DNA of 64,000 nucleotides, from positions 1,306-65,305 of the forward strand of contig CAMZNS010000032.1 of NCBI GenBank assembly GCA_947313855.1, given 5' to 3'. The position numbers were made by a program, and so were the translations under genes. The notes under the pieces are model-generated. The model was not told the DNA's origin, made no database searches, and saw only the letters and a program-made list of their open reading frames with translations. This document shows, piece by piece, positions 1 through 64,000 of this stretch; positions within the stretch are counted from its first letter, which is position 1; every line of letters begins with the position of its first letter. The DNA is from an uncultured Deferribacteraceae bacterium (lineage in GTDB: Bacteria > Chrysiogenota > Deferribacteres > CAMZNJ01).

Positions 1-794
1 ACATAACTCAGGTTGATGACTATTTTCTACGCCACTTTACATCGTATCTGTCGAGTAAGAATTTGTCCGACTCCAGCATCGAACGCAAAATAGCGACAAC
101 CAAGTCACTTTACAAGTACCTCCTCGCCGTCGGCATTGTTTCCACCAATCCTGCCAAGGGTCTCAAGTTTCCCAAAAAAGATAAGAAGCATCCGGAAATA
201 TTCAGTATCGACAGTATTCTACATCTCATGGATCTGCCCGATAAGTCCACGGCTAGAGGTTTGCGAGATGCTCTTCTCATGGATCTCATGTATTCCATGG
301 GCGTTCGGGTATCGGAGTTGGTAAGCATGGACGTGGGGGATATCGATTTCGGTGCCATGCATATTATCATCACGGGCAAGGGTGGCAAACAGCGTATCCT
401 CCCTGTGTTCGCTGAGCATATGGAGCTTATCAACAAATACATACTCATTCGTCCTCAGATGGTGGGCAAGGGGCATCATATCGATTCCGATTGCTTGTTC
501 ATCAACAAATACGGCAATCGGTTGTCGGATCGTAGTGTTCGCAATATTGTGGACAAATACCTCACCCAATCGGGGCTACCCTTGACACTATCACCGCACT
601 CGTTTCGACACACCTTTGCCACACACCTACTAGAATCAGGGGCAGACATCCGCTCTATCCAAGAGCTACTGGGGCACGATAGCCTTGCCACAACAGAGAA
701 GTACACACACATGAACCTCATAGCACTTCTCAAAGTGTACGACGAATCGCACCCCGCTAACGCAAAAAACACAAAAAAACACAAAAAAACATAA
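1..794 (+). CDS. Tyrosine site-specific recombinase XerC/XerD family, 5' end outside window
   Basis: The frame is open from nt 3. The C-terminal catalytic motifs are present: LSPHSFRHTFATHLLESGADIRSIQELLGH and EKYTHM (R..HxxR..Y). The N-terminal core-binding motif (SIERKIATTKSLYKYL) is present. Confidence 0.8.
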   Translation, partial: ITQVDDYFLRHFTSYLSSKNLSDSSIERKIATTKSLYKYLLAVGIVSTNPAKGLKFPKKDKKHPEIFSIDSILHLMDLPDKSTARGLRDALLMDLMYSMGVRVSELVSMDVGDIDFGAMHIIITGKGGKQRILPVFAEHMELINKYILIRPQMVGKGHHIDSDCLFINKYGNRLSDRSVRNIVDKYLTQSGLPLTLSPHSFRHTFATHLLESGADIRSIQELLGHDSLATTEKYTHMNLIALLKVYDESHPANAKNTKKHKKT

Positions 795-814
795 ACTAAT
801 CTAAGGACAAATAC

Positions 815-1870
815 ATGGGAAAACTTACAAGGAAGATACAGGTGGGGAGTGTGGACGTTGGCGGCGGTGCTCCTGTGTCCATTCAGTCCATGACCACCAC
901 TAACACCACCGACACAGAAGCAACAATCGCTCAGATACGGAGTTTGGCGAATGCTGGGTGCGAAATCATACGGTGCAGTGTTCCGTGCAAGGATTCGGCA
1001 GCCTCACTGAAACACATCGTCGACAGTGTTGACACCCCTGTTATCGCCGACATACACTTCAGCTACTCCCTCGCAATAGCCGCCATGGAGAACGGTGCTA
1101 GTTGCATACGCATTAACCCTGGCAACATCGGTGGTGAAAAGCGTTTGGAGAGTGTTATCCATGCCGCCAAGGCAAACAACTGCTCCATTCGTATCGGCGT
1201 CAATAGCGGTTCCATTGAAAAGCATGTTTTCGAGCAACACGGCATAACGCCAACAGCACTCGTCGAGTCCGCACTGAGCACCTTGGCCATATTTGAGCGG
1301 AACGGATTCTACAACACAAAACTCTCCCTGAAAGCCTCCCATGTGCCCACAATGGTGGAGAGTTATCGCATATTCGCTAGTCGATCAGACTACCCCCTGC
1401 ACCTTGGTGTAACCGAAGCGGGGTTGCCCTTTGAAGGGACAGTTAAGTCGGCTGTGGGTATCGGTGCTCTCCTGTTGGATGGTATCGGCGACACAATTCG
1501 CGTATCACTTACCACGGATCCGTTGGAGGAGATTGTTGTTGCCAAAGAGATACTGCACGCATCAGGGGTACGAAGTAGCGGTGTGGAGATAATCGCTTGC
1601 CCCACGTGTGCCCGTGTGGAGATAGATCTGTTTACGCTGGCTCAACAGGTGAAGGAACTAACCGTAGGGTTGCCCGCGGGCATAAAGATTGCGGTGATGG
1701 GGTGTATTGTGAATGGACCCGGTGAAGCTCGTGAGGCGGATTACGGTATTGCTGGCGGTCGCGGTTCCGGTATCTTATTCAAGAAGGGTGTGATTTTACG
1801 CAAAGTTTCTGAGGGGGAGCTACTCCACAGTTTGGAGGTTATGCTACGTGAGGATGGTCTTCTTAAGTAG
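815..1870 (+). CDS. ispG: 4-hydroxy-3-methylbut-2-enyl diphosphate synthase IspG/GcpE
   Basis: The N-terminus (IQVGSVDVGGGAPVSIQSMTTT) and the C-terminal iron-sulfur cysteines (CPTCARVEIDL, VMGCIVNGPGEA) are typical of GcpE. Confidence 0.9.
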   Translation: MGKLTRKIQVGSVDVGGGAPVSIQSMTTTNTTDTEATIAQIRSLANAGCEIIRCSVPCKDSAASLKHIVDSVDTPVIADIHFSYSLAIAAMENGASCIRINPGNIGGEKRLESVIHAAKANNCSIRIGVNSGSIEKHVFEQHGITPTALVESALSTLAIFERNGFYNTKLSLKASHVPTMVESYRIFASRSDYPLHLGVTEAGLPFEGTVKSAVGIGALLLDGIGDTIRVSLTTDPLEEIVVAKEILHASGVRSSGVEIIACPTCARVEIDLFTLAQQVKELTVGLPAGIKIAVMGCIVNGPGEAREADYGIAGGRGSGILFKKGVILRKVSEGELLHSLEVMLREDGLLK

Positions 1871-1873
1871 GGG

Positions 1874-1967
1874 CGGTCAGACTAGCAGACGGGCGAACAG
1901 TGGTCAGACTAGCAGACGGGCGAACAGTGGTCAGGCGAACAGACGGGCGAACAGACGAACAGACTAA
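1874..1967. repeat. Intergenic tandem repeat of 27-nt unit GGTCAGACTAGCAGACGGGCGAACAGT (2 copies), followed by degenerate ACAGACGGGCGAAC copies
   Basis: Direct reading of the ispG-aroE spacer. Confidence 0.8.
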
Positions 1968-1985: not shown

Positions 1986-3020
1986 GTGAACTATAAATAC
2001 TACAACATGGGCGTTATCGGATCCCCCGCAGCCCACTCCCTCTCCCCCGTACTACACTCCTACCTCCTTCAGGAGCGTGGTCTTGTTGGCGGATACAATA
2101 TTTTCGACGTACCCGAATCACGTATTCGCAAGGTGCTCGACCATGGTGCAATGTTTCACTACAGTGGCTTTAATGTTACCCTGCCGTACAAGAAACATAT
2201 TATGTCCATGTGCCACCATATGGATCCGATAGCGACTAGTATTGGGGCGGTGAATACTGTGAAGCTGAGCACACTTGCTAAAAAAGGGGGGCACCATGGC
2301 TCTGAGTCGCCCCCTGTGACGGCTACCGATAGGGAGCTGGCTTGGCACCATGGCTCTGAGTCGCCCCCTGTGTACACTCTGACAGGCTACAATACCGACG
2401 TTGTAGGGTTTGCACATATGCTACAACACAAAAATATTAATCCTGCTGATCAGAATGTACTAGTATTGGGTGCTGGTGGTGGGGCACGAAGTGTTGTTCA
2501 TCACCTTGATGCAGTTGGTGCTAAGGTTCAGGTATTCAATCGCACTGTTGATACAGCCGTTAGCCTCATTGCAGACATGGGGGCTAACGCCACCATAGCA
2601 ACAGCCGACAACCTCGCTCAAGGTGACTTCTACCTCATCGTTAACACAACATCCTCAGGCGTTCATGGGGAGGCGTTCACGGCTCTCCCTCCAGGTGTTA
2701 ATCTCAAGTTGACCCATGCTGTTGATCTGATTTACACACAAAAAGTTGGGGGAGCTGCAACAGGACTAGCAGGGAGCATTGCCACCCCCTTCCTTAGCCA
2801 CATGGGGGCTGATGTTAGTTGTGACGGTTTGCTTCACCTAATTTATCAGGGTGTGGAGTCGTTTGAGATATTCGTCAGGGATACTGAGTCGCAAAATCTT
2901 GGCACTACCCCTGCAACCCCTGCAACCCCTGCAACTCCTACAACCCCTACAACCCCTGATCCCGAATTCATCGACTACCTTTACGCAAAACTAACTAGAA
3001 TAATAAGTGGCAGACAGTAG
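1986..3020 (+). CDS. aroE: Shikimate dehydrogenase AroE with an internal 20-aa duplicated insertion and a TPATPATPATPTTPTTP C-terminal tail
   Basis: Diagnostic motifs are present: GVIGSPAAHSLSP, NVTLPYK, NTD, and a GAGGGARS Rossmann motif. The start may be the ATG at 2007. Confidence 0.8.
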   Translation: MNYKYYNMGVIGSPAAHSLSPVLHSYLLQERGLVGGYNIFDVPESRIRKVLDHGAMFHYSGFNVTLPYKKHIMSMCHHMDPIATSIGAVNTVKLSTLAKKGGHHGSESPPVTATDRELAWHHGSESPPVYTLTGYNTDVVGFAHMLQHKNINPADQNVLVLGAGGGARSVVHHLDAVGAKVQVFNRTVDTAVSLIADMGANATIATADNLAQGDFYLIVNTTSSGVHGEAFTALPPGVNLKLTHAVDLIYTQKVGGAATGLAGSIATPFLSHMGADVSCDGLLHLIYQGVESFEIFVRDTESQNLGTTPATPATPATPTTPTTPDPEFIDYLYAKLTRIISGRQ

Positions 3021-4703: not shown

Positions 4704-4753
4704 CGCGACACGACTGCGACACGACTGCGACACGACTGCTACACGACTGCTAG
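4704..4753. repeat. Intergenic tandem 11-mer CGACACGACTG, 4 copies
   Basis: Direct reading. Confidence 0.8.
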
Positions 4754-4899
4754 ATACCCCCCCCACCTTTGGCAACAAACTATTGCCAATTACAGCTTCA
4801 GTCTTATCTTAGTTGTAGAAACACCCTGCCACAAACCTCAAACTGTAGCAGGCATAATGAAAACATTAAAAAAAGATACATTTACAGAGGTCTTAAGTT

Positions 4900-8348: not shown

Positions 8349-9470
8349 ATGGCTACGGAAAAAGGACAGACAACAAATACAGCTAATCCGATACTAACAA
8401 GAGCTGCAACTGAAGACTCTGTTCTTCGAAACTACTACTCCGAAACCTACTCGCAGGACAAGAAAGTAGGGCTTCTCGTATTTAGGATAGGGGACGGTGT
8501 TTTTGCCATCGCAAGTCTAAAAACACAAGAAATAATACGCTCTGTGGATATTACAAGAGTTCCACATCTTGAAAAATATATTCTGGGTATCACAAACTTG
8601 AGGGGAAAAATACTACCCATTTGCGACCTCAGATACTTCTTCGGACTGAAAAATACCATCTTCGATAGGGACACAAGGGTTATTGTTGCCAAATTTAACC
8701 AAGGATCGATCGGGTTTGTGGTGGATGCAGTGGTGGATACAATCCACATTGCTGTGTCCTCCTTGGAAAAAAATAATTCATCGGTGTCTTCATTACAATT
8801 CGACGGATTCATCTCAGGCGTATGCAACCATAAAGATGGCATCATATTTCTACTGAATATTCTGAAAGTTGCTGGCATTGAGTCTGCACCGGGGGAAAGC
8901 GATCCACTTGACACCTTCCTGAATATGTTGGGGGACAGGGAGGGTGGTAAGGGGTTGGAACGCTCAGGTGGCGACGGTGGTGGCGACGGTGGTGGCAGCA
9001 GCAACACACTCTGGTACCTCCTCGGACGATACAACCACAGTAACCCCGCAAAACTAACCCTCTACATACTATTCACCATACTCAACCAAGGGGGGTACAT
9101 GTTCGCTCCTTGGCGATGCTCCTCGTGCGGACAGAGCCTCACAGCCGAAAACCAAGATTGCAACACTGCGAGGGGCGTTGCAACCCTAAACCATGACGGC
9201 GAAATGCACTGTGCACAGTGTACGCCACAACCACACACCATTACTGCCACCGATATTGCTAGCTCAAACATCAAGTATGTTCGCACTAGTGTGTTTTTGG
9301 CGTTGCAGAGCTTTTACCACAGCCATAGCTACACATCCCTCGAGGTGGACGCAATACTGGAGCACGAATTACTAGACCTACTGTTTTACCATGGTGCCAA
9401 CGTGTTAGGGTATCAGCTGCACGCCTATCGCCACTACCGACTGCTCATGCCACCACCCAAAGGGGCATAA
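8349..9470 (+). CDS. CheW-domain protein with a ~200-aa C-terminal extension containing a CxxC...CxxC motif
   Basis: The CheW fold signature is VPHLEKYILGITNLRGKILPICDLR...RVIVAKFNQGSIGFVVDAV. The tail contains WRCSSCGQ...HCAQCT. Confidence 0.7.
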   Translation: MATEKGQTTNTANPILTRAATEDSVLRNYYSETYSQDKKVGLLVFRIGDGVFAIASLKTQEIIRSVDITRVPHLEKYILGITNLRGKILPICDLRYFFGLKNTIFDRDTRVIVAKFNQGSIGFVVDAVVDTIHIAVSSLEKNNSSVSSLQFDGFISGVCNHKDGIIFLLNILKVAGIESAPGESDPLDTFLNMLGDREGGKGLERSGGDGGGDGGGSSNTLWYLLGRYNHSNPAKLTLYILFTILNQGGYMFAPWRCSSCGQSLTAENQDCNTARGVATLNHDGEMHCAQCTPQPHTITATDIASSNIKYVRTSVFLALQSFYHSHSYTSLEVDAILEHELLDLLFYHGANVLGYQLHAYRHYRLLMPPPKGA

Positions 9471-9501
9471 TGAAGTCACCATACGGCTAATTCATGGCAA
9501 C

Positions 9502-10671
9502 TTAGTCGTAGCTCTCTAACTCCGCAAATGGGTAGCTGTCCACTTCATACACGTACCCCAAAGGGTTTTGTATGTAGTAAAATATACCAACCTGACAGAT
9601 GGGGAGGAGCGTATCGGTAATCCCTGCGGATTCGGTGCCTTGCACCACAACCATGGAGCCCGAAACGGCGTTACCCGTGGTTGGCGTTAACGTGGTTGGC
9701 GTGGCACCCAACCCCAAGGCAGAACACTCCTGCGGAAACCGACCATCCAAAGAGTACACGCGGAAGGCATCCAGTGGTGCAATATTCGCAAAAACCCTGC
9801 GACTCTCATCCGCCTGCAAAACCACTTTCGAGTTGAGTATCCACACCCCACCCCGCTCCGACAAAAACCCCTCTTCGTCACCCCCCACATGGGAATACAC
9901 AAGGGAATACTGCAAATCGCCAACATTCACAGCCCAAAACTCCATGCTATCCATGACAATATCGTAAACCCTCTGACTCGCTACCTGCTCGGCTGTGTCC
10001 GGTATAATCTGATACAAGTTCGTCGTCACAATATGAACTCTGTCCCCATACTTAACATACATGAACCCCTGAAAATGGGACGACTGCTCCCGTATTGCCG
10101 ATCCAAACTCCAAAACATGCCTCGCACCATTTCGAGTAACAATGGTCAGCTTACTAGGGTGCCCTTCACGGGTGACACTCAGGGGGGCATCGTCGTTGTT
10201 GCTGTCGTTGTTGCTGTCGTCAACACCATCCGCCATTTGTGGCAAAAAATCTTTCAAAAAATACTCGTCGCCAACTTCATCAATAGGTGTGGAACCCTCA
10301 CTTTTCAGATCGACCACATCCCGCAACACCTTCTCCACCAATGCGTTGTTAGCGGGGATACGCACACCCCTGTGAGTGTCGCCACCAGCGGTTTTATACG
10401 CGGTGATAAACCACCCCGCACCACCACCCGAAGCATACTCGAGGGTGTAAGCAGGCATCGACGTAACCATGGCACCAGCACCAACACTAGGCGTGTAACT
10501 CACCGACTGAATAACATTGCCGTCGTTGCCACTAACAAGGATATTCGCAGGGAGAACGTTTGCCACTGCACTAGGACGCACAGACACAACGTACACAGAC
10601 ACAGCAACAATTACTACAACCACGGCCATCACTTCAATACGTATTAAATGTGCAAGCTTGTGTTTAGTCAT
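9502..10671 (-). CDS. Membrane-anchored periplasmic protein, possibly the DUF4340-like accessory of the upstream GldG-type ABC system
   Basis: An N-terminal TM anchor (MAVVVVIVAVSVYVVSV) is present at the internal Met start. The assignment rests on position immediately downstream of the GldFG-like gene. Confidence 0.35.
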   Translation of the reverse strand: MTKHKLAHLIRIEVMAVVVVIVAVSVYVVSVRPSAVANVLPANILVSGNDGNVIQSVSYTPSVGAGAMVTSMPAYTLEYASGGGAGWFITAYKTAGGDTHRGVRIPANNALVEKVLRDVVDLKSEGSTPIDEVGDEYFLKDFLPQMADGVDDSNNDSNNDDAPLSVTREGHPSKLTIVTRNGARHVLEFGSAIREQSSHFQGFMYVKYGDRVHIVTTNLYQIIPDTAEQVASQRVYDIVMDSMEFWAVNVGDLQYSLVYSHVGGDEEGFLSERGGVWILNSKVVLQADESRRVFANIAPLDAFRVYSLDGRFPQECSALGLGATPTTLTPTTGNAVSGSMVVVQGTESAGITDTLLPICQVGIFYYIQNPLGYVYEVDSYPFAELESYD

Positions 10672-13240
10672 CCCTACCCCCTTGGGCACCCCTGAGCAAC
10701 AACGATACCGCCCGAAAACGCCGACGCAAACCCATAACCATGAAGAAACCGACAACCAGAAGGGGTGCAACAACAAACCATAACCTATACACACCCTCGG
10801 AACCGTACACGTCAGGACGAACAGGGGTTACACCCCGACCCTTGGGTGGTACCGGCGAAATATAAACACCGCCAGACGCACCGCCAGACACACCGCCAGA
10901 CGCACCGCCAGACACAAACTTACTACGACTCAACACGGCTCCACTATTGAGAATACTTACCAGAAGCTGAGCATTGTCGGCACTGTGGAAGAACTGCTCC
11001 CCCCACAACTGTGCGTCTGACACTAAGTAGAGCCCCCCGAACCCCGTTGCATCACCAGACTCACCAGACTCACCAGACTCACCAGCTGAAACCACTTTAA
11101 CCGCAAGTGCACTCGAACCTGTATAGTTTGTGTACTGCTTCCCCAAAGGTATGGCCAGCTCCCTCGACATATCCACCCCCGACTGCTTGGTGGAGCTCAG
11201 GATGGGGGTAACAGTAATATTGACAACGCCACCACCATGGCGACCGTAAGGCTCGTACACACCTGTACTGCCAAAGGGGTACGACGCGGTGATGGCAGAC
11301 GCATACGCCAACACAACCCGCGATACACCCTCCGTCTCCAAGGCTGTGCCCGTGGTCGTGGTCGGCTGAACATTCAACACAAACGGCAGCTTGACGCTAC
11401 GAACACCGCCAAACATATCACCAATCTGCACAAACAACGAACTGCTATCGTAAACAAGACCCTGACTCAAAACAATACCCATGGACGCAAGTAACGGCTC
11501 AAAACCTGTTTGCACACGCTGAAGAGGTATCTGATTGCGATTAATACTGCTAAGACCCAGACCATCCAGCTGAACATTATCCAACGCAAGCAACACGGTG
11601 CCACCTAGCTCCAAGTAGGTTGCCACGGAGTTAACAACAGCTGTCGGTGCCGTGCCCTCGTCCACCACAACAACCAAAATATCGTATGCTAAGTTGCGGT
11701 CTGCTGAGGTGCCCGACGTGGTGGAGGCACTGAATAACGGATTACTACCCGTGCTATTGCTAATATCCGTCCCACTCAACCACTCAATACGGAAATCGCT
11801 ACCAAGGTGTGTTTTCCAAATTATGGCTAGGGCATCTTGCTCTTCGCTACCGTGCTCATGATCGTCACCTGCGTAAGCATCACCGTCACCTGCGTAAGCA
11901 TCACCGTCACCACCCATGTACACAACACCCACCGTTGGCATAGCAATCTTCGACCCCAAAAGCTGCTTGATGACACCACTAATTCGCCGCTCCATCAACG
12001 ACTTCCCCATCAAGTTGGGTATGACAACATTTTCACCGCCGTAAGATACGATGGCACCAAAATAGTTCTCACCACCACCCGACGCACCACCACCCGACGC
12101 ACCCTTGCTCGGCGTATAAATGGGCTCCAACTCATACGCACCCGGAATCAGGGGCAACAACTCCCTGCCACTAATGGAGATGTTGCTCACTCGCACCGAT
12201 CCCCGCAAACCGCTCCTGTCCGCATAAGACACATACCTATCCAGCAACTGCTCAGCGTAGGTGTAGTTCTCCTGTATCGACGCAGGCAAAGGTGTTGTAT
12301 GCAACAAGATAACTCCCACATCACCACCCGTTCCCGCAATATCCAAAATCTCACGAGTAGGCTCACTAAGGCGAAACAAACCCCTGCCCGTCATGTCAAA
12401 CTGCACAACAAACCAGTAGGGCAACAGCAACGAACTCACAACAATTACCCAAACCGAAACAACTTTCACAAACAACAAACCGATGCCCACAAAACCACGT
12501 CGCAACTGTGCCACATAGTAAGCCATAAACAGAATACCCAAGGGCACAACAACAAAATAAACCACATTCAACAAGGTCTGCTCACCAAACAAAAACGGCG
12601 GATAATGATAAGCAATACTGCCAACATATGCATAACGAAGAAGACTCTCCGGTAACAAAAAAGTGAGAAACAACGGCGTATACAACAAAAACCACAAAAA
12701 TAACGCAAATGCAAACGATGCCGAAATACGACGCACAACCATGGACGAAAAAATAATCAAAGAAGCATTCAACAAAATAATGAAAACAAAACCGATGAGC
12801 GAAGATAACTCCAAAACCCAAACAATACCACCAGTACTCGAAACAACAAACAACAAACCAACCGTAACAACAACAAGGGGCAACGATACCAATACCAACG
12901 CAAAATACGAACCAACAATAATATGATACCAACGGATATTCGACGAAAATAAGTAATCCATCAAACCACCACGAGACTTGCTAAGGGGATGACTAAGAAG
13001 ACCCGCACCCATAAATAACATGGCAATCATACTCAAAAACGGGGCCAGAAGATAGTAAGGATACAACGATACGCGGTACTCAATAAAATAAACGGACGAA
13101 AGATACACACCGCTAACAACACCATACACCAACAAAACCACGTAATACGAATAAGCACGACCGTACAACACGAAACACAACGAATATACCGCCAAAAACT
13201 TGCGAATACTAGACGACAGCAACATAACCAACATCCTCAC
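10664..13240 (-). CDS. Fused ABC-2-type permease plus GldG-like auxiliary component, with several in-frame low-complexity repeat insertions
   Basis: The N-terminal ~280 aa form a polytopic membrane domain. They are followed by a GldG-like signature (FRLSEPTREILDIAG...VGVILLH). Repeats GASGGGASGGG, GDGDAYAGDGDAYAGDD, SGESGESGESGD and GGASGGVSGGASGGV are present. Confidence 0.5.
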   Translation of the reverse strand: MRMLVMLLSSSIRKFLAVYSLCFVLYGRAYSYYVVLLVYGVVSGVYLSSVYFIEYRVSLYPYYLLAPFLSMIAMLFMGAGLLSHPLSKSRGGLMDYLFSSNIRWYHIIVGSYFALVLVSLPLVVVTVGLLFVVSSTGGIVWVLELSSLIGFVFIILLNASLIIFSSMVVRRISASFAFALFLWFLLYTPLFLTFLLPESLLRYAYVGSIAYHYPPFLFGEQTLLNVVYFVVVPLGILFMAYYVAQLRRGFVGIGLLFVKVVSVWVIVVSSLLLPYWFVVQFDMTGRGLFRLSEPTREILDIAGTGGDVGVILLHTTPLPASIQENYTYAEQLLDRYVSYADRSGLRGSVRVSNISISGRELLPLIPGAYELEPIYTPSKGASGGGASGGGENYFGAIVSYGGENVVIPNLMGKSLMERRISGVIKQLLGSKIAMPTVGVVYMGGDGDAYAGDGDAYAGDDHEHGSEEQDALAIIWKTHLGSDFRIEWLSGTDISNSTGSNPLFSASTTSGTSADRNLAYDILVVVVDEGTAPTAVVNSVATYLELGGTVLLALDNVQLDGLGLSSINRNQIPLQRVQTGFEPLLASMGIVLSQGLVYDSSSLFVQIGDMFGGVRSVKLPFVLNVQPTTTTGTALETEGVSRVVLAYASAITASYPFGSTGVYEPYGRHGGGVVNITVTPILSSTKQSGVDMSRELAIPLGKQYTNYTGSSALAVKVVSAGESGESGESGDATGFGGLYLVSDAQLWGEQFFHSADNAQLLVSILNSGAVLSRSKFVSGGASGGVSGGASGGVYISPVPPKGRGVTPVRPDVYGSEGVYRLWFVVAPLLVVGFFMVMGLRRRFRAVSLLLRGAQGGRDD

Positions 13241-13255
13241 AAAAACATCCTCGCA

Positions 13256-14188
13256 TTAACACGAAGAACCCGAACCAACCGAGTTACCCAAAATACCATC
13301 ATAAATACCCGAAAGATACTCCCGAACACCCACACCACTCAAAGAGGAAGAAACATCACCACCAACACGAAGATGAACCGTTCTCGCAAGACAACCACCA
13401 TCCAACACAAACACCGTATCACACAACTCAACCATATCATCCAACAGGTGCGAAGACACAACAACAATACTACCACAACCCATCAAACGAATAATCTCAT
13501 GCAAAAATATGCGAAAAGAAGCATCAACATCACTGGACGGCTCATCAAGAACAACTACTGGCGGTGAATAAAGCAGAGCAGCAGCAATACCCACACGCTT
13601 GCGGTAACCCTTGGACAGCTTACCGCAAAGGGTGGCGGAATACGGGGCAAGACCACACAGATTCATGACACGACGTGCCTCTTGGCGAGGGGTGGCAGAC
13701 GCGGTGGACGCGATGGACGCAGAAACACGGTCGGGACACCTCAACTTTGCACAAAACTCGAGGAACTCAACAACACTAAGCTCAGGCACAACAAAACTAT
13801 CCTCAGGGAGGTAGCCAACACTCACAGACGACGTGGGCGACGTGGGCGACGTGGGCGACGTGGACACATCAGGCACCCCACCAGCACTAATCTCCACCCC
13901 ACCAGTGGTCGCCACCATCGCACCAGCCATAATACGCATCCACGTGCTTTTCCCACTACCGTTTGCCCCCAGTATCCCGTACACCCCAGGGGCACCCATA
14001 ACAATACGCTCCCCACGTAGATCGAGGATCGTCTGCTTACGCCCCATACGCTTGCTGAGGTTGACGGTAGTCATCACGGTTGCAACAGGCGTAGCCGTAG
14101 TCGTGGTCGTGGTCGTAGGCTGTCTCTCCATACTGATCTGCCCCCAAATAAATACAATGCGAAATAACTGTACCATCATACACCGCAA
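13256..14188 (-). CDS. ABC transporter ATP-binding protein (GldA-like) with a TSPTSPTSPTSS insertion
   Basis: Walker A is GANGSGKST. The ABC signature is LSKGYRKRVGIAAAL. Walker B is VVVLDEPSSDVD. Confidence 0.8.
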   Translation of the reverse strand: MRCMMVQLFRIVFIWGQISMERQPTTTTTTTATPVATVMTTVNLSKRMGRKQTILDLRGERIVMGAPGVYGILGANGSGKSTWMRIMAGAMVATTGGVEISAGGVPDVSTSPTSPTSPTSSVSVGYLPEDSFVVPELSVVEFLEFCAKLRCPDRVSASIASTASATPRQEARRVMNLCGLAPYSATLCGKLSKGYRKRVGIAAALLYSPPVVVLDEPSSDVDASFRIFLHEIIRLMGCGSIVVVSSHLLDDMVELCDTVFVLDGGCLARTVHLRVGGDVSSSLSGVGVREYLSGIYDGILGNSVGSGSSC

Positions 14189-14235
14189 GAACAGCCAAAC
14201 ACAACAGTAATTTGCCGTGCATCAGCACCCTCGGG

Positions 14236-14290
14236 CACCACAACAATCACGCCACGGCAATCACGCCACGGCAATCACGCCACAGCAAAA
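14236..14290. repeat. Intergenic tandem 14-mer GGCAATCACGCCAC, 3 copies, followed by (ACATGC)3 at 14440-14462
   Basis: Direct reading. Confidence 0.8.
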
Positions 14291-14426
14291 CAAGCGTTGA
14301 AATTCCCGTATTGCCGTGTTACAATGGTCTTGTTACACAAATACTCTTGCTACAAAAATACTTTCGTTACAAGCCGACCTGCCTTGAAAAGTGTAGCTTC
14401 AGGAGCACGCCACAGTTATCAAGACC

Positions 14427-16127: not shown

Positions 16128-16186
16128 AAAGCATAGACAAAAAACTTTACAATATGTATGTATATCAAATACAAGGAGGTAGCATT

Positions 16187-17737: not shown

Positions 17738-17808
17738 AACATGCACTCTATCGATTTTTTTGGTATAATATCAAGCAGTAAGTTCTTTTTTTAGCTACTG
17801 GAGGTTTT

Positions 17809-19395: not shown

Positions 19396-19466
19396 CACAA
19401 GCTCTAACACAGCACCCAAAAGGGTGGAACAACCCGCAACGTAGTACTCCACAATAGGATGCAATT

Positions 19467-19886: not shown

Positions 19887-19934
19887 CCAAAACCTAAGTA
19901 CACTACATAAATTTATCCCTAGAGGTCAGTATTC

Positions 19935-23935: not shown

Positions 23936-24099
23936 ATTTTGCCCCTTCCCTATTGCCCTATTGCCCTATTGCCCTATTTGATAAATTTCCCTTGATTTTT
24001 TTTGCAATACTCTTTATAGTTATTAACTAGTGATTATTAGTTTGATTTTTCAAACAAACTGTACTATTTTATACATAGGTGCTGTTTATTATTTTTTTT

Positions 24100-45005: not shown

Positions 45006-45087
45006 TCCCCCCTATCTTGCAAACCATAAACGAAAAATGGGTTTGAACCCGAAAAATGACGAATTCAAACCCATAATTAAGTGGTAT

Positions 45088-49130: not shown

Positions 49131-50012
49131 ATCAGCACCTGAACCAGCACCTGAACCAGCACCAGCACTAGTGCGATCCATATCCATGTGCTTCACCAAG
49201 CAGTTGTACCCCAAATCAGTAAGGTGCGTACCAACAGACTCAGCAACATGAACAGAACGATGACGACCACCCGTGCAACCGATGGACAACGTAAACGACG
49301 ACTTCATCTCATTAATATAACGGGGAACAAGGAGATCCAACATGGCGAAAAGTTGGGTCATGAACGGCTCATAAAAATCGTCCCGCTGAATATACGCCGA
49401 TACATCAGCATTTTGACCCGAAAAACCGCGAAGCTCCGGAACAAAATACGGATTCTTCAGAAAACGAACATCCATAAGCATGTCGCTATCACGAGGCGAA
49501 CCGTACTTGAAACCAAACGACTGAACAACTATCTGAAACTCAGCACGATTATCACGCTCAACCCATGTCTGCAACCGACTCTGCAAGTCGTGGGGCGAAT
49601 AATCCGAAGTATCGATAATAACGTCAGCAAACTCGCGAATGGGAGCGAGCATGGTAATCTCCTCGTCGATGGCATCACCAATAATCACACCCCGTGGATG
49701 CATCCGTCGCGACTCCTTAAAGCGGTTAATCAGCACCGCTTTGTCGCACTCAAGGTAGACAACTCGTGCGTTGTAACGAGTCTTCTCCTTGTCAATAACC
49801 TTGTACGCGTTCTCAATGCCACGGGTGCGAACATCGATGGACAAAACAAGCTTGCTTACACCAGAACTCGGCTTACTCGACGTCTCAATAATGGCGGTAA
49901 ACATGTCTAGCGGAACGTTGTCTATGGCGTAGTAGCCGTTGTCGTTGAATATGCTCAGTGCCTTGGTTTTACCGGCACCCGAAAGCCCCGTCAGTATTAC
50001 TAGCTCAAGCAT
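49119..50012 (-). CDS. rapZ: RNase adapter protein RapZ (YhbJ)
   Basis: Walker A is LTGLSGAGKT. The C-terminal signature is GCTGGRHRSV. Confidence 0.9.
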   Translation of the reverse strand: MLELVILTGLSGAGKTKALSIFNDNGYYAIDNVPLDMFTAIIETSSKPSSGVSKLVLSIDVRTRGIENAYKVIDKEKTRYNARVVYLECDKAVLINRFKESRRMHPRGVIIGDAIDEEITMLAPIREFADVIIDTSDYSPHDLQSRLQTWVERDNRAEFQIVVQSFGFKYGSPRDSDMLMDVRFLKNPYFVPELRGFSGQNADVSAYIQRDDFYEPFMTQLFAMLDLLVPRYINEMKSSFTLSIGCTGGRHRSVHVAESVGTHLTDLGYNCLVKHMDMDRTSAGAGSGAGSGADSVV

Positions 50013-50073: not shown

Positions 50074-50185
50074 ACCATCGACCATCGACCATCGACCATC
50101 GACCATCGACCATCGACCATCGACCATCGACCACTGCCACCGAAAGCATGGCGAACATGGCGAACATGGCGAACATGGCGAACAT
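50074..50185. repeat. Intergenic tandem 8-mer CCATCGAC (about 9 copies), then 9-mer CATGGCGAA (4 copies), in the hpf-rapZ spacer
   Basis: Direct reading. Confidence 0.9.
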
Positions 50186-50223
50186 GGTGCCCAAATAACT
50201 ATAACACCGCAACGTTCATGGTT

Positions 50224-50841: not shown

Positions 50842-52388
50842 TGCGTTCGATCGAATCTTGATGGTATGGCAAAGTCTTCGCGGTATTTGGTAACAGTTCG
50901 TCGGGCGATTTTTATCCCCCTTTCGGCAAGTTTTTCGGATATTTTTTGGTCGCTTAGTGGGTTATTTTTGTTTTCTCCGTCAATTATTTCTTGCAGAACC
51001 AGTTTTACGGCTTGGTTAGAGAGAGTGTTCCCCTCTGAGCCAGCGGGTTTGGGCACCCCTTTTACGAAGAAGTGTTTGAGTTCGAGTAGTCCGTACGCCG
51101 TCATGGCGAATTTACCTGCTGTTGCTCTGCTTACGGTGGATTCGTGCAGTCCTGTGACTGTTGCGATGTCCACAAGACGCAGTGGGCTAAGCCTGAGTGA
51201 TCGTTTCATTAGGAAGTCTTCTTGGTGTTCGGCAATTACTTCGCAAACTCGTCGAATGGTATCTTGTCGTTTTGTTAGCCCTGATATTAGAAATTGTGCT
51301 TCTTTTAGTTTTTCGTCAACATATTTTTTATGTCCGATGTTATTTGGTGTGTTTGTTTTGTTATTTTTGATGTCTAGGAACATTTTGATATACTTGCGAT
51401 TAATTCCTAGGGATGGCACAACGTTGTCGTTTAGTGTGATTTCGATACTGTCATTGTTGGCGTTGGGCACAAGGTAGATATCGGGAATAATGTGGTGTCC
51501 AACACTATCGTACCCTTTGCTGGGTGCAAGTGTAGTTTTTTTGATGGATGCGGCTGTCCGCTCTACGAATGTTGTGGGTATCCCTAGTGCTGTGGCGATT
51601 TTGCTATAACGCATGAGCGACAGCTCTTTTAGGTAGTCGTGGAGTAGTATGGTTGCGAGTTCTACCTCGTCGGGGCATACCTCCATATCTTTCATCTGTT
51701 TGATTATGCTCTCTTGGAATGAGGCACAGGCGACGCCAACAGGGTGAAACTCTTTGATAACGTTGAGCACCTCTTCAAACTCGCCAACAGTTATGCCTAG
51801 GTATCTGCTTGATTTTTTAATATCGAGGGTAAAGAAGCCGTTGTCGTCAAGGTTTCCGATAATGTACATCCCTATTGTTTCTTGGCTTGGCGAGAGGTGC
51901 GAGATGATTAGCTGTTTTGAAAGTGCTTCGTACAGGGATTCGGTATGCCCCACAAAGCTTTCATACTCCACAAAATCGGTGTCGCCGTAGGAGTCTATCC
52001 CAGTCATGGGTTGGTAGGTTTCGCTGATGAAGTTGTCCCATTCGTCGGAATCGAACGTTTCGTAAATCGAGTCATCTTTGCCGCTAATATTTTCGGTGGT
52101 ATCTTGGGTATTGCTAGTGTTGTCGGTGTTATTGGAGTCTGAGTCTGAGCCGGAATCTGCGTTTGTGTTTGCGTCCATGTTTATGTTTGTGTTTGCGTCT
52201 GATTCTGCGTCGGCGTCTAGGTCGTGTGTGTACTCGAGTAGTGGGTTCTCCTCCATGAGTTCGCCGATGGTGGAGGCGAGTTCCATGGTTGTCATGCGTA
52301 ACATGCTAATGGATTGTTGCATGGAGGCAGTCATGACAATCTTCTGGCTAAGCTGATTATTGAGGGATAGATTTATTCCTTGAGCCAT
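50838..52388 (-). CDS. rpoN: RNA polymerase sigma-54 factor RpoN with an acidic low-complexity insertion
   Basis: The N-terminal Gln/Leu-rich region I is present. The C-terminal RpoN box is ARRTVTKYRE. A helix-turn-helix is present. Confidence 0.9.
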   Translation of the reverse strand: MAQGINLSLNNQLSQKIVMTASMQQSISMLRMTTMELASTIGELMEENPLLEYTHDLDADAESDANTNINMDANTNADSGSDSDSNNTDNTSNTQDTTENISGKDDSIYETFDSDEWDNFISETYQPMTGIDSYGDTDFVEYESFVGHTESLYEALSKQLIISHLSPSQETIGMYIIGNLDDNGFFTLDIKKSSRYLGITVGEFEEVLNVIKEFHPVGVACASFQESIIKQMKDMEVCPDEVELATILLHDYLKELSLMRYSKIATALGIPTTFVERTAASIKKTTLAPSKGYDSVGHHIIPDIYLVPNANNDSIEITLNDNVVPSLGINRKYIKMFLDIKNNKTNTPNNIGHKKYVDEKLKEAQFLISGLTKRQDTIRRVCEVIAEHQEDFLMKRSLRLSPLRLVDIATVTGLHESTVSRATAGKFAMTAYGLLELKHFFVKGVPKPAGSEGNTLSNQAVKLVLQEIIDGENKNNPLSDQKISEKLAERGIKIARRTVTKYREDFAIPSRFDRTQ

Positions 52389-53335: not shown

Positions 53336-53771
53336 AAGATGAGCCGTGCCATATGGTCACATTCCCTATTAGTTTGATAAACTTGCCCGTTTTGTCGTCA
53401 ATATCAACAGCATCTGCAATACCGATATTCCCCCACCTATCGGAGTAGGTAATGTTGCCCTGTGCACTGCCTTTGATTCCGCTGTTGTCGATGGCAACCT
53501 TGGCACGATCACCCTTGACGGCGAAACGGTGATCGAAAACCTCAACATTGCCCCTTAATTCGACAGTGCCTTCGTTGGAGTTGTAGGTGGTGGTGTCGGC
53601 AAAGATATTTATTCGTGCTGTGGCTGTGGTTGGGTAGAGGAGGGGTGTCCACAAAAGGAGTGCCCATGGGAGGAGTGCCCATGGGAGGAGTGCCGCAACG
53701 GGAGTACCCCACCAGCGTTGAATAGTGCTAAGAAAAGCCTGTGGGGCTACTAATAGTTTCACCATTCCCAT
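53157..53771 (-). CDS. lptA: LptA/OstA-like periplasmic LPS transport protein
   Basis: It has signal/hydrophobic-like and Pro-rich N-terminal segments. An OstA-like beta-jellyroll region is present (GNVEVFDHRFAVKGDRAKV...GNVTIWHGS). It is positioned between lptC-like and lptB. Confidence 0.55.
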   Translation of the reverse strand: MGMVKLLVAPQAFLSTIQRWWGTPVAALLPWALLPWALLLWTPLLYPTTATARINIFADTTTYNSNEGTVELRGNVEVFDHRFAVKGDRAKVAIDNSGIKGSAQGNITYSDRWGNIGIADAVDIDDKTGKFIKLIGNVTIWHGSSYVVSGDVIYHYYEENRTVIESNNGSVATLKSSDGLQSLRRDGERIDKGRTNGGLTDGKK

Positions 53772-53869: not shown

Positions 53870-54799
<930 letters not shown>

Positions 54800-58869: not shown

Positions 58870-59012
58870 CATCATCGCCCAGCAGGCACCACCCAGCAGG
58901 CAGGGGGCATCATCACCACCACCGCCCAACAGGCACCGCCCAACAGGCACCACCCAACAGGCATCACCGCCCAACAGGCACCACCCAACAGGCATCACCG
59001 CCCAACAGGCAG
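58870..59012. repeat. Intergenic tandem repeat of CCCAACAGGCA(C/T)CACCG 17/11-mer units, about 9 copies, between the pncB start and oppF end
   Basis: Direct reading. Confidence 0.85.
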
Positions 59013-59031: not shown

Positions 59032-60015
59032 CTACTTCTCATGCAGGAAACAAGCAACCTTATGACCCGCTTCCATTTCGATAAGCTTAGGTTTGTTGTC
59101 CAAACACTTGTCCATCTTCCTAGGACAACGTGAGTAGAACGGACACCCGAATATTTTCACCGTTGGAGATGGCAGATCCCCCTCCAAGATAATCCTACTA
59201 CGGGAACGCTCAATCTCAGGATCAGGAACCGGAACAGCTGACAACAACGACTCAGTATACGGATGCAAAGGGTTCTCATAAAGACGAGAAGCCTCACACA
59301 TCTCCATAATCTGACCGAGATACATCACAGCAACACGATGACAAGTGTATCGAACAACAGCCAGATCGTGGGCAACAAAAAGGTAACTCAACCCACGCTC
59401 CTCCTGAAGATCGGAAAGAAGATTCAACACCTGTGCCTGAATAGAAACATCCAAGGCACTAACAGGCTCATCCAAAAGGATAAGCTTCGGATCCATAGCC
59501 AAGGCACGAGCGATACCGATACGCTGACGCTGACCACCAGAAAACTCGTGGGGGTAACGCTTACGCAAGCTGTAACGCAAACCAACACGCTCCATAACCT
59601 CAGCAACCTTACGATCGATACCTGCTTTATCTATGTCGATGAGCTTCCTGTTGCGAAAAATTGTCAACGGCTCCGCAATAATATTACCAACAGTAATACG
59701 AGGACTTAGGGATTCATAAGGATCCTGAAAAACAATCTGCATCTCACGACGAGAAGCGATAAGCTCTCTCTTGTTCAGATTTGCAAGATCCTTGCCCTCG
59801 AAAATAACAGACCCCGAAGTGGGCTTGTACAAACGTGCAATGGTACGAATTGTTGTGGACTTACCGCAACCAGACTCACCAACAAGACCCAATGTTTCAC
59901 CGGGATAGATATCGAAACTCACACCATCAACGGCACGAAGTGTTCGCTTACCACTTATATCAAAGTGCTGTTTTAATTTGCGAACCTGCAATAAAGGTTT
60001 CTTTTTGTTACTCAT
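59032..60015 (-). CDS. oppF: Oligopeptide/dipeptide ABC transporter ATP-binding protein OppF-like
   Basis: Walker A is GESGCGKST. The signature is LSGGQRQRIGIARAL. A C-terminal Cys-rich oligopeptide-transporter domain is present. Confidence 0.85.
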   Translation of the reverse strand: MSNKKKPLLQVRKLKQHFDISGKRTLRAVDGVSFDIYPGETLGLVGESGCGKSTTIRTIARLYKPTSGSVIFEGKDLANLNKRELIASRREMQIVFQDPYESLSPRITVGNIIAEPLTIFRNRKLIDIDKAGIDRKVAEVMERVGLRYSLRKRYPHEFSGGQRQRIGIARALAMDPKLILLDEPVSALDVSIQAQVLNLLSDLQEERGLSYLFVAHDLAVVRYTCHRVAVMYLGQIMEMCEASRLYENPLHPYTESLLSAVPVPDPEIERSRSRIILEGDLPSPTVKIFGCPFYSRCPRKMDKCLDNKPKLIEMEAGHKVACFLHEK

Positions 60016-62233: not shown

Positions 62234-62369
62234 AACTACACTCTCCTAAATCGTACTTCTGGAGGCTTACAGCAAGCCCAACCAACTTCAGGAGCCTGCC
62301 ACAGGACAACTAACTAGCAAAACGATATGTTGATCGTTGCCCTTAATCTATCTCGTTTCTGCTCCGTTC

Positions 62370-63299
62370 TTATTTATAATCTATGCGTGGATCGAGGAAT
62401 ACGTACAGGAGATCCACAATGAGGTTGAAAACCACTAGCAATGATGCGTAAACCACTACGATACCCAATAGCAAGAAGTAGTCACGGTGCAACGCCGACT
62501 CAACAAAGTAGCGACCGATACCGGGCACACGGAATATCTGTTCGATAACAATGGAGCCCGTCAGGATGGACGCCATGGTTGGCCCTAGAAAGCTGACAAT
62601 GGGCAGCAAACCCCCTTTGAGGGTGTGGCGAACAACAACAGCGCGCGTGGACAACCCTTTCGCCCTAGCCGTGCGGATGTAGTCGCTCTTCAGAACCTCG
62701 AGCATACTACCACGCGTAATACGGGCAATCTCAGCAAAGTAGATGAACGCGAGGGTAACCACAGGCAGGATGACGGCAGACCAACCGTTGATGCTAGACA
62801 GCCATCCCGACGTGGGGAGGAGCCCCAGCTTGAGGGCGAACACGTACTGCAGTAAGGGTCCTATCACAAAGAGGGGGATGGAGATACCGATGATTGCGAT
62901 ACCCATCAAGGTGTAATCTATGTAGGTATTCTTAAACAGGGCGGCGAGAACCCCCACCGTTATCCCCAAGGAGAGTGCCAAAATCATGGCGAGACCTCCG
63001 AGGGTGATGGATATGGGAAGCGACTTGAATATGTATTCTGTTACGGTGTAGTCCTTGTAAAATATGGACAAACCCAGGTCGCCATGGAGCAACCTGCCGA
63101 CGTAGTTGAAATACTGAATCACAGGGGCTTTGTCTAACCCATACTTCGCCTCAAGATTGGCACGAACCTCAGGTGGTATGGGGCGTTCGGAGCTGAATGG
63201 ATCCCCCGGTGCCAAGTGAAGCATTGCAAAACTGATGCTTATAATTACAAATATTGTGGGTATGATACCCAGCACCCTTTTAATGGCGTAGACTCTCAT
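62370..63299 (-). CDS. oppB: Oligopeptide ABC transporter permease OppB-like
   Basis: The N-terminus is IKRVLGIIPTIFVIISISFAMLHLAPGDPF. The EAA loop is YIRTARAKGLSTRAVVVRHTLKG. Confidence 0.85.
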   Translation of the reverse strand: MRVYAIKRVLGIIPTIFVIISISFAMLHLAPGDPFSSERPIPPEVRANLEAKYGLDKAPVIQYFNYVGRLLHGDLGLSIFYKDYTVTEYIFKSLPISITLGGLAMILALSLGITVGVLAALFKNTYIDYTLMGIAIIGISIPLFVIGPLLQYVFALKLGLLPTSGWLSSINGWSAVILPVVTLAFIYFAEIARITRGSMLEVLKSDYIRTARAKGLSTRAVVVRHTLKGGLLPIVSFLGPTMASILTGSIVIEQIFRVPGIGRYFVESALHRDYFLLLGIVVVYASLLVVFNLIVDLLYVFLDPRIDYK

Positions 63300-63754
63300 T
63301 TAAAATCCCCCTGCTTGATCGAAACAGTGTAAGCAACCGGCACGGTACGTTATTGTTATCACTAACACTAGTGATAATACCGTAATAAGTTAATTATTGT
63401 TGCAAATGCCTTATTAGCTGTGATAAAGTAGCCCCGTTCAGCCGTAAAACTTAACCATGCAACTAACTGATACGACTACTTTTTAACTACTTAACGGGCA
63501 GCTTAACCACTTTGCATTCGCAATAATTTAGTTATCTGATTATTATAACAGATGCCTTTTCCGGATGTCAACATTTAAATTAACTCCGCGACACATCCAC
63601 GCGGAACCCCTAACCATGCACCACACAAAGGCTTCACGAACCGAAACACACGAACCGAAACACACGAACACACTGCAAGTGTGCACCAACACCAACAACA
63701 ACACTCCCGTGGCACACTGCAACACTCAAACAACCATCCTACGAGGTGCTTACC

Positions 63755-64000
63755 ATGCGTATACTTGATATTGTTGACTCACAGGCGGGCTTCATGGCTC
63801 CATGGGGGAACCTCTATGTTGAAGGTGCCGACCAAATAATCGAACCCATAAACAACTTTTTCCGAAAAGTACCCCCAAACGCCTACAAACTTGCCCTCGC
63901 AAAATACGACACGCACCTAAAAGAAACTTACCACCTGTCACCCGAAAGCAAACTCTTCCCACTGCACTGCGAATACCAATCCCAAGACTGGCAACTCGCC
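63755..64000 (+). CDS. Nicotinamidase/pyrazinamidase PncA-like (isochorismatase family), 3' end outside window
   Basis: An RBS (GAGGTG) lies 7 nt upstream of the ATG at 63755. The motifs are ILDIVDSQAGF (D-x-Q-x-x-F) and KYDTHLKETYH...FPLHCEYQSQDW (D-x-H...H...HC metal/catalytic cluster). It is absent from the ORF track because no stop codon falls inside the window. Confidence 0.55.
   Translation, partial: MRILDIVDSQAGFMAPWGNLYVEGADQIIEPINNFFRKVPPNAYKLALAKYDTHLKETYHLSPESKLFPLHCEYQSQDWQLA

Follow-up and report, generated by a model that had tools for sequence, protein, structure and literature searches.

The window analysed here, a 64,000-nucleotide stretch of the 65,921-nt contig CAMZNS010000032.1 from an uncultured Deferribacteraceae bacterium, is densely filled with short tandem repeat arrays, which are the subject of this work. 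Most of its open reading frames (ORFs) can be named by means of Pfam. The first part encodes a Xer-type integrase, ispG, aroE, fapA, lon, a ParA/MinD-like gene and cheW, followed by a GldG-like ABC auxiliary protein with its ATPase and a solute-binding protein, and then by four methylmalonyl-CoA/oxaloacetate decarboxylase subunits, two heptosyltransferases, a hexapeptide-repeat protein and an RpiB fusion. A flagellar stretch (flgH, fliW, a 1311-aa Flagellin_N protein, flgK, flgN, flgM, a flgJ-like gene and flgI) precedes genes for an ankyrin protein, a FabI-like protein, radA, a PHP protein and ruvB, and the last part holds desulfoferrodoxin, a radical-SAM protein, rapZ, hpf, rpoN, lptB, lptA, pyrG, a HAD hydrolase, pncB and oppFDCB. 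The sole tRNA of the window is a tRNA-Pro at 24099-24174.

The density of short tandem repeats in this stretch is about 10-20 times that of typical bacteria. Arrays were called with Tandem Repeats Finder (TRF) over the 64-kb window and graded by TRF score, and once redundancy is removed from the 93 rows obtained, 68 arrays remain, of which 24 are perfect (100% matches). At scores of at least 30, 50 and 80, the window contains 68, 42 and 21 arrays, respectively, compared with 7.0, 0.1 and 0 in dinucleotide shuffles (n=20) and with 29.9, 5.5 and 2.0 per 64 kb in a background of 80 unrelated bacterial loci (1.36 Mb). When the count is restricted to satellites, considered here as arrays with a unit of at least 10 nt and at least four copies, nine are found, which corresponds to ~141 per Mb against 7.4 per Mb in the background under the same criterion. 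In the survey "Satellites in the prokaryote world", a density above 4 satellites per Mb is found in only 18 of the 119 reference bacteria; the values listed for the most satellite-rich ones are ~4-13 per Mb, with roughly 10-13 at the top (PMC6749651). The saturation with tandem arrays that had been proposed for this stretch in the original prediction, made from the letters of the DNA, is therefore borne out. Arrays with a score of at least 50 occupy 22.6% of the intergenic bases versus 2.2% of the coding bases, in a window that is ~90% coding according to its longest ORFs.

The units of these arrays are locus-specific, as any 9-mer in common was found for only 13 of 861 array pairs, all of them trivial, which indicates that they do not derive from a mobile or dispersed element. 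A dispersed repeat family of the repetitive extragenic palindromic (REP) or miniature inverted-repeat transposable element (MITE) type was ruled out on the same basis, since no element recurs among the array units. CRISPR arrays were also discarded, because the units are contiguous, with no spacers between them, and the only Rfam match in the window is one tRNA. In contrast, all the features of variable-number tandem repeats (VNTRs), or minisatellites, are found: head-to-tail units of ~6-100 nt, a unit specific to each locus, and copy-number polymorphism. Regarding composition, the GC content of the arrays is 56% versus 48% for the window, and C exceeds G on the + strand in 29 of 42 arrays. 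Apart from this, the region 12001-20000 exhibits a marked strand asymmetry, with a GC skew of -0.27 to -0.29 and an AT skew of up to +0.30.

The window very probably belongs to a small, host-restricted genome, one of the four "Candidatus Rimicarispirillum" metagenome-assembled genomes (MAGs) from the midgut of the vent shrimp Rimicaris exoculata, to judge from the matching descriptions. The nearest named RuvB proteins are those of Deferribacteres, with ~64% identity. The four Deferribacteres MAGs from this midgut were described by Aubé et al. (2022), who assembled them with MEGAHIT from Illumina 2x150 reads; they show average nucleotide identities of 87.0-97.6%, GC contents of 46.7-47.6% and sizes of 1.25-1.36 Mb, and received the names Candidatus Microvillispirillaceae / Rimicarispirillum, the symbiont cells being long filaments that "elongate but do not divide" (PMC9636832). 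Tandem repeats are nowhere mentioned in that paper (PMC9636832), and the repeat saturation is apparently unreported for this lineage. Syntenic loci from three sister assemblies were reached via exact-sequence cluster look-ups, and will be referred to as relatives A (GCA_947313805.1, 96.4% identity to the window), B (GCA_947313825.1, 87.6%) and C (GCA_947313785.1, 87.9%). A scan of genome contigs with the RuvB core yielded no relatives, with only distant RuvB proteins of at most 62% among the matches listed, and neither did a scan of metagenome contigs with a lineage-specific 640-aa ORF. According to TRF, array density in the three relatives equals that of the window.

The second characteristic of the arrays is the relationship between unit length and reading frame. 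At a score of at least 60, the unit is a multiple of three (3n) in all 16 arrays located in coding sequences (CDS) and in 9 of 17 intergenic arrays (Fisher p=0.0027), while at a score of at least 50 the figures are 21 of 23 and 9 of 19 (Fisher p=0.0024). The latter CDS set has two exceptions, one of them a 10-mer lying across the stop codon of the integrase and the other a 17-mer of poor quality (74% matches). Weaker non-3n matches assigned to CDS consist of two copies with constant length between genomes, and are probably due to chance. In fact, no non-3n array of at least three copies lies inside coding sequence proper, as the 10-mer at 764-795 only straddles the stop codon. Among intergenic arrays, about half have 3n units (including units of 27, 12, 30, 9 and 21 nt), a proportion not significantly different from one third. 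The rule proposed in the original prediction, that arrays inside proteins have 3n units, consequently stands, but it cannot be turned round, as an intergenic position does not imply a non-3n unit, and the 18-nt units that had been listed with the mostly intergenic ones are themselves multiples of three. The same bias is observed in relative B, with 3n units in 21 of 21 CDS arrays and 4 of 10 intergenic arrays. Non-3n arrays that seemed to be in CDS of relatives A and C turned out to be artefacts of naive longest-ORF calls, in which spurious ORFs cross intergenic arrays. The predominance of 3n units is a general property of tandem repeats in coding sequences (PMC6749651), and it is visible in the background set too.

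Three + strand ORFs of the window (35426-35740, 44574-45029 and 45086-45427), of 100-155 aa and with no Pfam match, cross arrays and appear to be repeat artefacts; the relatives are annotated with similar small ORFs. A spurious + strand ORF of 104 aa results from the arrays between flgM and flgN.

Evidence of activity comes from the comparison with the relatives, in which each array was anchored by its 150-nt flanks. A BLAST gap-by-gap indel catalogue splits array differences into 1-2-nt gaps, and only its junctions and total enrichment were used. Between the window and relative A, length differs at 27 of the 33 arrays with a score of at least 50 and at 17 of the 18 with a score of at least 80, while among control 45-nt segments away from repeats it differs in 5 of 120. 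Moreover, 12 of the 14 breaks in the BLAST alignment of these two genomes occur at arrays. Many of the differences correspond to whole units, such as +4 for an 11-mer, +3 for a 15-mer, +3 for an 18-mer, -7 for the 7-mer, +1, +5 and +9 for hexamers, and -6 for the 21-mer of ruvB. The frame filter is also visible in these changes: considering A, B and C together, the non-zero length differences are 3n in 50 of 52 cases for CDS arrays and in 14 of 51 for intergenic arrays (p=5e-14), B and C not being mutually independent. Active slippage combined with purifying selection on frame, as originally suggested, is therefore upheld by the units and, independently, by the length differences.

As a consequence of these changes, the encoded proteins vary in length. 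In the window and relatives A, B and C, RuvB has 428, 386, 407 and 438 aa, RapZ 297, 301, 296 and 308, CheW 373, 456, 464 and 431, and the ORF at the LptC position 309, 273, 259 and 271, while AroE has 344 aa in the window and 314 in both B and C. RpiB, the biotin carrier and the ABC ATPase also vary among genomes at their in-frame arrays, and the proposal that in-frame arrays are copy-number-variable linkers, or tails, is supported by all these proteins. An RpoN allele from an independent Logan assembly is identical to that of the window in all 508 shared residues, and lacks eight residues (24 nt) inside the 12-mer array, whereas RpoN from relative A differs by several substitutions. An allele that differs only by an array deletion suggests that array changes outpace substitutions, and is the sole hint of high-frequency switching within a population.

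Not only the copy number but also the unit itself differs at orthologous sites (Table 1), which points to a fast birth and death of arrays. The spacer between ruvB and the PHP gene captures the birth and expansion of one of them: B and C have one copy, and the number rises to ~3 in A and ~10 in the window. Arrays are thus born, expanded and replaced at recurrent permissive sites, on the timescale over which species and strains diverge. The hpf-rapZ spacer of relative C (positions 16215-16540 of the locus recovered) harbours a 19-mer present in 10.9-11.5 copies (~210 nt) plus a 17-mer and a 13-mer, the first of them being the largest intergenic array at this site among the four genomes. An inactivation of hepT2 by slippage in C was considered and ruled out, as there are no gaps against B.

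Table 1. Tandem arrays of the window and their state in relatives A, B and C (x, number of copies; nt differences in relation to the window)
Location	Coordinates	Strand	Array	Relatives
Integrase (Xer-like) stop codon	764-795		10-mer x3.2, straddling; only strong non-3n array touching CDS	B and C 20 nt shorter
ispG-aroE co-directional spacer	1875-1964		27-mer x3.0 + 8-mer x2.1, spacer filled	B/C 185/199 nt, other sequence
aroE C-terminal region	2907-2958	+	9-mer x5.8, (TPA/TPT)n	A -9 nt; B and C -33 nt
fapA stop to lon promoter-like site (4783-4810)	4705-4750		11-mer x4.2	A 90 nt (+4 units, as 22-mer x3); B and C almost no array
cheW	8967-8996	+	12-mer x2.5, GGDG repeats	
GldG-like ABC auxiliary gene	10866-10916	-	in-frame 12/24-mer	
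GldG-like ABC auxiliary gene	11052-11085	-	in-frame 9-mer x3.8	
GldG-like ABC auxiliary gene	11863-11911	-	in-frame 21-mer x2.3	
GldG-like ABC auxiliary gene	12070-12103	-	in-frame 15-mer x2.3	
ABC ATPase ORF	13698-13720	-	in-frame 9-mer	
ABC ATPase ORF	13768-13807	-	in-frame 21-mer	
ABC ATPase ORF	13829-13863	-	in-frame 9-mer x3.9	
ABC ATPase ORF, N-terminal tract	14096-14116	-	in-frame 6-mer x3.5	A 12-mer x7.2; B 12-mer x5.1; C 9-mer x3.2
Divergent intergenic region before ORF 14427-16127	14244-14372		14-mer x3.2 (14244-14288) + 17-mer x2.1-2.6	A same copy number; absent in B and C
Biotin carrier subunit, Ala/Pro/Ser linker	20026-20065	+	15-mer x2.7	A +45 nt; B and C -15 nt
hepT2 stop to tRNA-Pro	23709-23978		86-nt higher-order repeat x2.5, nested 11-mer x4.1, 8-mer x3.9	97-130 nt shorter
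Hexapeptide-repeat gene to rpiB ORF spacer	25468-25568		12-mer x8.4	A x3.7; B and C no array
RpiB ORF, N-terminal extension/linker	25660-25688	+	in-frame 6-mer	
RpiB ORF, N-terminal extension/linker	25814-25889	+	in-frame 12/18-mers	
RpiB ORF, linker before RpiB domain	26284-26352	+	ACCGCA x11.5, (TA)n	A 30-mer x3.3; B not recovered; C 9-mer x17.4
flgK - flgL-like spacer	32960-33032		30/31-mer x2.4	
flgM-flgN spacer	35430-35700		9-mer x8.6-10.7 + 21-mer x2-3	A 258 nt
flgJ-like - flgM spacer	36226-36270		21-mer x2.1	
Ankyrin gene stop codon, flgI upstream spacer	38142-38193		18-mer x2-2.7	A +54 nt (3 units)
ruvB stop to PHP start, intercistronic spacer	43598-43726		13-mer x9.9, spacer filled, ends 24 nt before PHP start codon	A 49 nt (12-mer x2.9); B and C single 12-nt copy
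RuvB N-terminal extension	44724-44958	-	21-mer x11.1, 42-nt higher order, (GSGYDAG)11	
3' untranslated region (UTR) of ORF 45370-47292	45088-45347		hierarchical TTGC-based array, periods 4, 35, 39	63-123 nt
RapZ C-terminal tail	49127-49163	-	12-mer x3.1, (GAGS)n	
hpf-rapZ spacer	50074-50187		perfect 7-mer ACCATCG x8.6 (50074-50133) + perfect 9-mer x4.6	A ~1.5 copies; B 13-mer x2; C 19-mer x10.9 + 17-mer + 13-mer
RpoN acidic linker	52135-52198	-	6-mer + 12-mer, DANTN repeats	
LptA N-terminal hydrophobic (signal-like) region	53656-53694	-	15-mer x2.6	A -15 nt
LptC-position ORF	54194-54495	-	four in-frame 6/12-mer arrays, (NT)n, (SP)n, (SGSA)n	
oppF stop (59032) to pncB start	58920-59011		14-mer x6.1, 31-nt higher order	
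Upstream of oppB	63635-63704		14-mer x2.5 + 6-mer x3.5	

The peptides encoded by the in-frame arrays are rich in Gly, Ser, Thr, Ala, Pro, Asp and Asn, and are located at protein termini or between Pfam domains, in hosts that include the housekeeping proteins RuvB, RpiB, AroE, RapZ and RpoN. The four arrays of the GldG-like gene (10866-12103) encode G/S/A/D-rich peptides, and every length difference to the relatives is 3n, while the ABC ATPase contains an (STSP)n stretch. The most extensive case is RuvB. Other RuvB proteins have ~335-357 aa and no N-terminal heptad extension, which is specific to this genus; the tract is present in the four genomes, belonging to two species, with different unit arrangements, and has 11 units in the window versus 5 in relative A, although the former copy number is approximate, because the 235-nt array of the window exceeds the default maximum k of MEGAHIT, which is 141 (the k used is not stated in the MAG paper).

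Among the individual arrays named in the original prediction, those recovered as described are the rpiB hexamer, the 12-mer of cheW, the 9-mer and the 12/15/21-mers of the GldG-like gene, the 9-mer at 13829-13863 in the ABC ATPase, and the intergenic 11-mer, 14-mer and 13-mer that precede lon, the permease-like ORF and the PHP gene, respectively. Others had to be corrected. The ruvB array, described as a 15-mer with 16 copies, is the 21-mer of GSGYDAG heptads; in the lptC-like ORF, TRF detected 6- and 12-mers and no 9-mer; and the 8-mer CCATCGAC placed at 14470-14560 is absent, its motif being the 7-mer of the hpf-rapZ spacer. The ORF at 59032-60015, taken for lptB, is oppF (Pfam ABC_tran and oligo_HPY), and the array between pncB and oppF, assigned to its 5' leader, lies 3' of its stop codon.

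Some neighbouring features also deserve a mention. The RapZ array and the convergent radical-SAM ORF (47898-49130) share 4 nt, which are the final ones of this ORF and fall within its stop codon; the radical-SAM protein also varies in length, with 410, 385, 455 and 385 aa in the window and relatives A, B and C. The 86-nt repeat just upstream of tRNA-Pro(GGG) consists of an AT-rich module (TATTCAATATAAATATAGGGCACACATGCC) plus nested sub-arrays of the 11-mer (x4), followed by the 8-mer x3.9, and its modules are possibly duplicated promoter modules of this tRNA. At the flgL position, the ORF 28971-32906 encodes the 1311-aa protein with Flagellin_N as its only domain, which also has exactly 1311 aa in A and C and no strong arrays despite its length. 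The ORF 38180-40159 encodes a 659-aa ankyrin-repeat protein, eukaryote-like and of a type common in host-associated bacteria, which is ~92% conserved in B and C, above its neighbours. In cheW, homology to the three relatives ends at the 12-mer array, and the last 158 codons show no homology to the C-termini of their CheW proteins. Past cheW, the gene order also diverges, with coaE and a poly(A) polymerase-like gene in the relatives and, in the window, a 430-aa ORF and the GldG-like gene, within which the contigs of A and C terminate, near window positions 11600-11700. This junction (8967-11700) represents either a real rearrangement at the repeat or a chimeric short-read join.

The explanation that best accounts for these data, and which is regarded as probable, is an untargeted tandem duplication of short units, filtered by selection on frame, in a small host-restricted genome, with most arrays being near-neutral. 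According to it, tandem duplications of 6-40-nt units would arise, expand and contract at an unusually high rate, likely through slipped-strand mispairing when DNA is replicated and/or through unequal exchange in which sister or sibling copies of the chromosome take part. Duplication would be untargeted, as suggested by the locus-specific units and by the appearance of arrays anywhere. In genes, selection would remove frameshifts and insertions in folded domains, and only 3n units and length changes survive, almost exclusively as flexible low-complexity linkers or tails. In spacers, any unit length survives, so that arrays make up around a fifth of the non-coding DNA. Most arrays would thus be near-neutral hypervariable minisatellites instead of regulatory switches. 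Of this picture, the density, the frame rule, the length polymorphism among relatives, the replacement of units at orthologous sites and the composition of the peptides are shown by the data, and the molecular mechanism and the cause of the high rate are inferred. The higher-order periods observed (42 nt over 21, 86 over 11, and 35/39 over 4) fit this repeated local duplication. The high rate may be caused by a reduced repair repertoire, by relaxed selection or by polyploid filamentous cells, since a reduced genome and long filaments make repair loss, relaxed selection or multi-copy recombination plausible. The genes mutS, mutL, recJ, recA, xseA and uvrD receive no mention in the main text of the MAG description (PMC9636832).

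Several points weigh against this explanation. All four genomes are short-read MAGs, in which arrays longer than 141 nt or than the reads are not reliably sized; the copy number of the longest ones (235 nt in ruvB, 257 nt in the TTGC complex and 216 nt in the 86-nt repeat) may be collapsed or arbitrary, and some of the variation at these sites could be assembly noise. The mutation rate and the heterogeneity within populations are deduced from genome sequences, and the density is based on the 64-kb window and ~200 kb of the three relatives. Furthermore, the Gly/Tyr/Asp-rich extension of RuvB is kept in both species, which could mean selection for function, and a regulatory effect of the few arrays beside promoter-like sites (4705-4750 and 14244-14288) can be speculated.

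A bolder version of the same idea, although an unlikely one, is that the minisatellite density of this genus ranks with the highest among bacteria owing to a lineage-specific change in DNA metabolism rather than to ordinary slippage, and that the variation in linker and spacer length is used adaptively. Either a function that stabilises repeats (mismatch repair or single-strand exonucleases) would have been lost, or the many chromosome copies of the long, non-dividing filaments would frequently undergo unequal exchange, and length variation would tune proteins and operon expression between vent sites and hosts.

It has also been considered that the in-frame arrays are functional protein repeats, kept by positive or balancing selection because the length of linkers and tails serves the symbiosis. 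The presence of the RuvB tract in four genomes across two species, and its absence from other RuvB proteins, would agree with this proposal, and so would the fact that linker positions are conserved hotspots. Nevertheless, unit sequence, unit length and even the encoded peptide at a given site differ per lineage, with RpiB holding (TA)n, a 10-aa or a 3-aa unit and RapZ holding GAGS or DSTSTS; arrays occur in housekeeping proteins that are unrelated to each other, whether cytoplasmic, periplasmic or of the membrane, and the same process fills non-coding spacers. A functional role as the reason for their maintenance is consequently judged to be distinctly improbable.

The original prediction considered the intergenic arrays as promoter-proximal contingency or rheostat loci, that is, arrays kept because their copy number reversibly switches or tunes downstream expression, as in Haemophilus, Neisseria and Campylobacter. 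The hypervariable lengths between close relatives are what such loci would show, and three arrays are suitably placed: the 14-mer ends 8 nt before the -35 of a good promoter-like site (14297-14325, + strand) of ORF 14427-16127, the 11-mer lies 33 nt upstream of the promoter-like site of lon, and the 13-mer ends immediately upstream of the PHP gene. However, the promoter-like sites of lon and ORF 14427-16127 are outside the neighbouring arrays, and a promoter scan, based on consensus only, found no array between predicted -35 and -10 hexamers. The placement claimed does not hold in general either, as ~16 of the 19 strong intergenic arrays are intercistronic, in spacers between co-directional genes, and the region 14244-14372 is the only divergent intergenic region with arrays. 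In the case of the TTGC-based array, a terminator-like hairpin (45074-45037, - strand; 15 pairs and a T-run) parts it from the ruvB promoter-like site at 45023-44994, which situates the array in the 3' UTR of the preceding gene and not in the upstream region of ruvB.

The nature of the repeats and of the genes also argues against switches. Coding sequence proper has no non-3n array with three or more copies, and the motifs that are usual at contingency loci, homopolymers and tracts of 2-5 nt, show no expansion: the longest homopolymer of the window has 10 nt, no di- or trinucleotide exceeds four copies, and no long mono- to penta-nucleotide tracts were found in the window apart from the TTGC complex. 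Homopolymer lengths in CDS are conserved across the relatives. Phase variation at homopolymers was rejected even for the C10 tract of flgI (37077-37086; G10 on the coding strand), for which the relatives show C8 after a substitution, without any length change. The neighbouring or host genes are housekeeping ones (lon, aroE, rapZ, ruvB, rpoN, rpiB, pncB, tRNA-Pro, ABC transporters and flagellar chaperones) and not genes for surface structures, host interaction or restriction-modification. Finally, linkers of cytoplasmic enzymes host arrays as often as the surroundings of promoters do, in agreement with a process that is not targeted. According to these data, it is very improbable that contingency explains the intergenic arrays, and evidence from expression or at the level of reads should be required before they are annotated as phase-variation switches.

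It is extremely improbable that the arrays, or their copy-number differences, are artefacts of the de Bruijn graph assembly of short reads: although the 2x150 Illumina origin and MEGAHIT assembly of the MAGs, the unreliable sizing above ~141 nt, the ending of the A and C contigs in the repeat-rich GldG-like gene and the possible chimeric join at the cheW array would invite this suspicion, assemblers collapse or break repeats and do not invent them, most arrays (30-130 nt) are under k and read length, they occur at orthologous positions in four independent assemblies, and the CDS arrays strictly follow the 3n rule, a biological signature to which artefacts would be indifferent. In addition, a contig from an independent k=31 Logan assembly (run ERR7998034) is 100% identical to window positions 1-1904 and breaks off after the first 30 nt of the 27-mer array, which indicates that the arrays are present in the reads.

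This genome offers a clean natural experiment, in which one mutational process operates in coding and non-coding DNA and the frame filter is visible both in the units and in the length differences between genomes. The arrays also have practical implications, as they explain contig breaks and possible mis-joins in published short-read MAGs, and yield spurious ORFs and inflated or variable protein lengths.

Compared with known systems, the arrays share with simple-sequence contingency loci the slippage-prone repeats and a length that changes at high frequency. Such loci, studied by Moxon and colleagues, are exemplified by the tetranucleotides of Haemophilus influenzae and the homopolymers of Neisseria and Campylobacter. 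Their units have 1-5 nt, while those of the window mostly have 6-40 nt, and, unlike them, the window has no frameshifting unit within CDS proper, none between promoter hexamers, and an association with housekeeping genes. The arrays are more similar to the VNTR loci used in multilocus VNTR analysis (MLVA) of Yersinia pestis, Bacillus anthracis and Mycobacterium tuberculosis (mycobacterial interspersed repetitive units, MIRU-VNTR), which are also head-to-tail, of ~6-100 nt, locus-specific and polymorphic, with a predominance of 3n units in coding regions. The difference with these loci is one of density, as the ~141 per Mb of the window, obtained with a comparable TRF criterion, contrast with the highest values of the survey mentioned above, ~10-13 per Mb (PMC6749651). 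As VNTRs, the arrays can serve as ready markers with which to follow populations of the symbiont from one vent field or host to another.

The closest known case is that of Ehrlichia ruminantium, for which the same kind of genome-wide tandem-repeat plasticity has reportedly been described by Collins et al. (2005) and in a 2006 J Bacteriol paper (both cited in PMC10710844). The two bacteria share a small host-restricted genome (~1.3-1.5 Mb) with many locus-specific arrays in coding and non-coding DNA, whose copy number differs between close strains. Nevertheless, E. ruminantium is an intracellular pathogen of the Rickettsiales, while the window comes from a Deferribacteres-like, extracellular gut symbiont. 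The coding density of E. ruminantium is ~64%, versus ~90% (longest ORFs) in the window, where spacers are short and partly made of arrays, and inflated repeat-rich intergenic regions of the E. ruminantium type are not matched. The many in-frame insertions in housekeeping enzymes are, unlike in E. ruminantium, a feature of the window. This lineage joins, from a remote phylum and with another lifestyle, the very short list of bacteria whose genomes are known to be full of tandem repeats undergoing active change.

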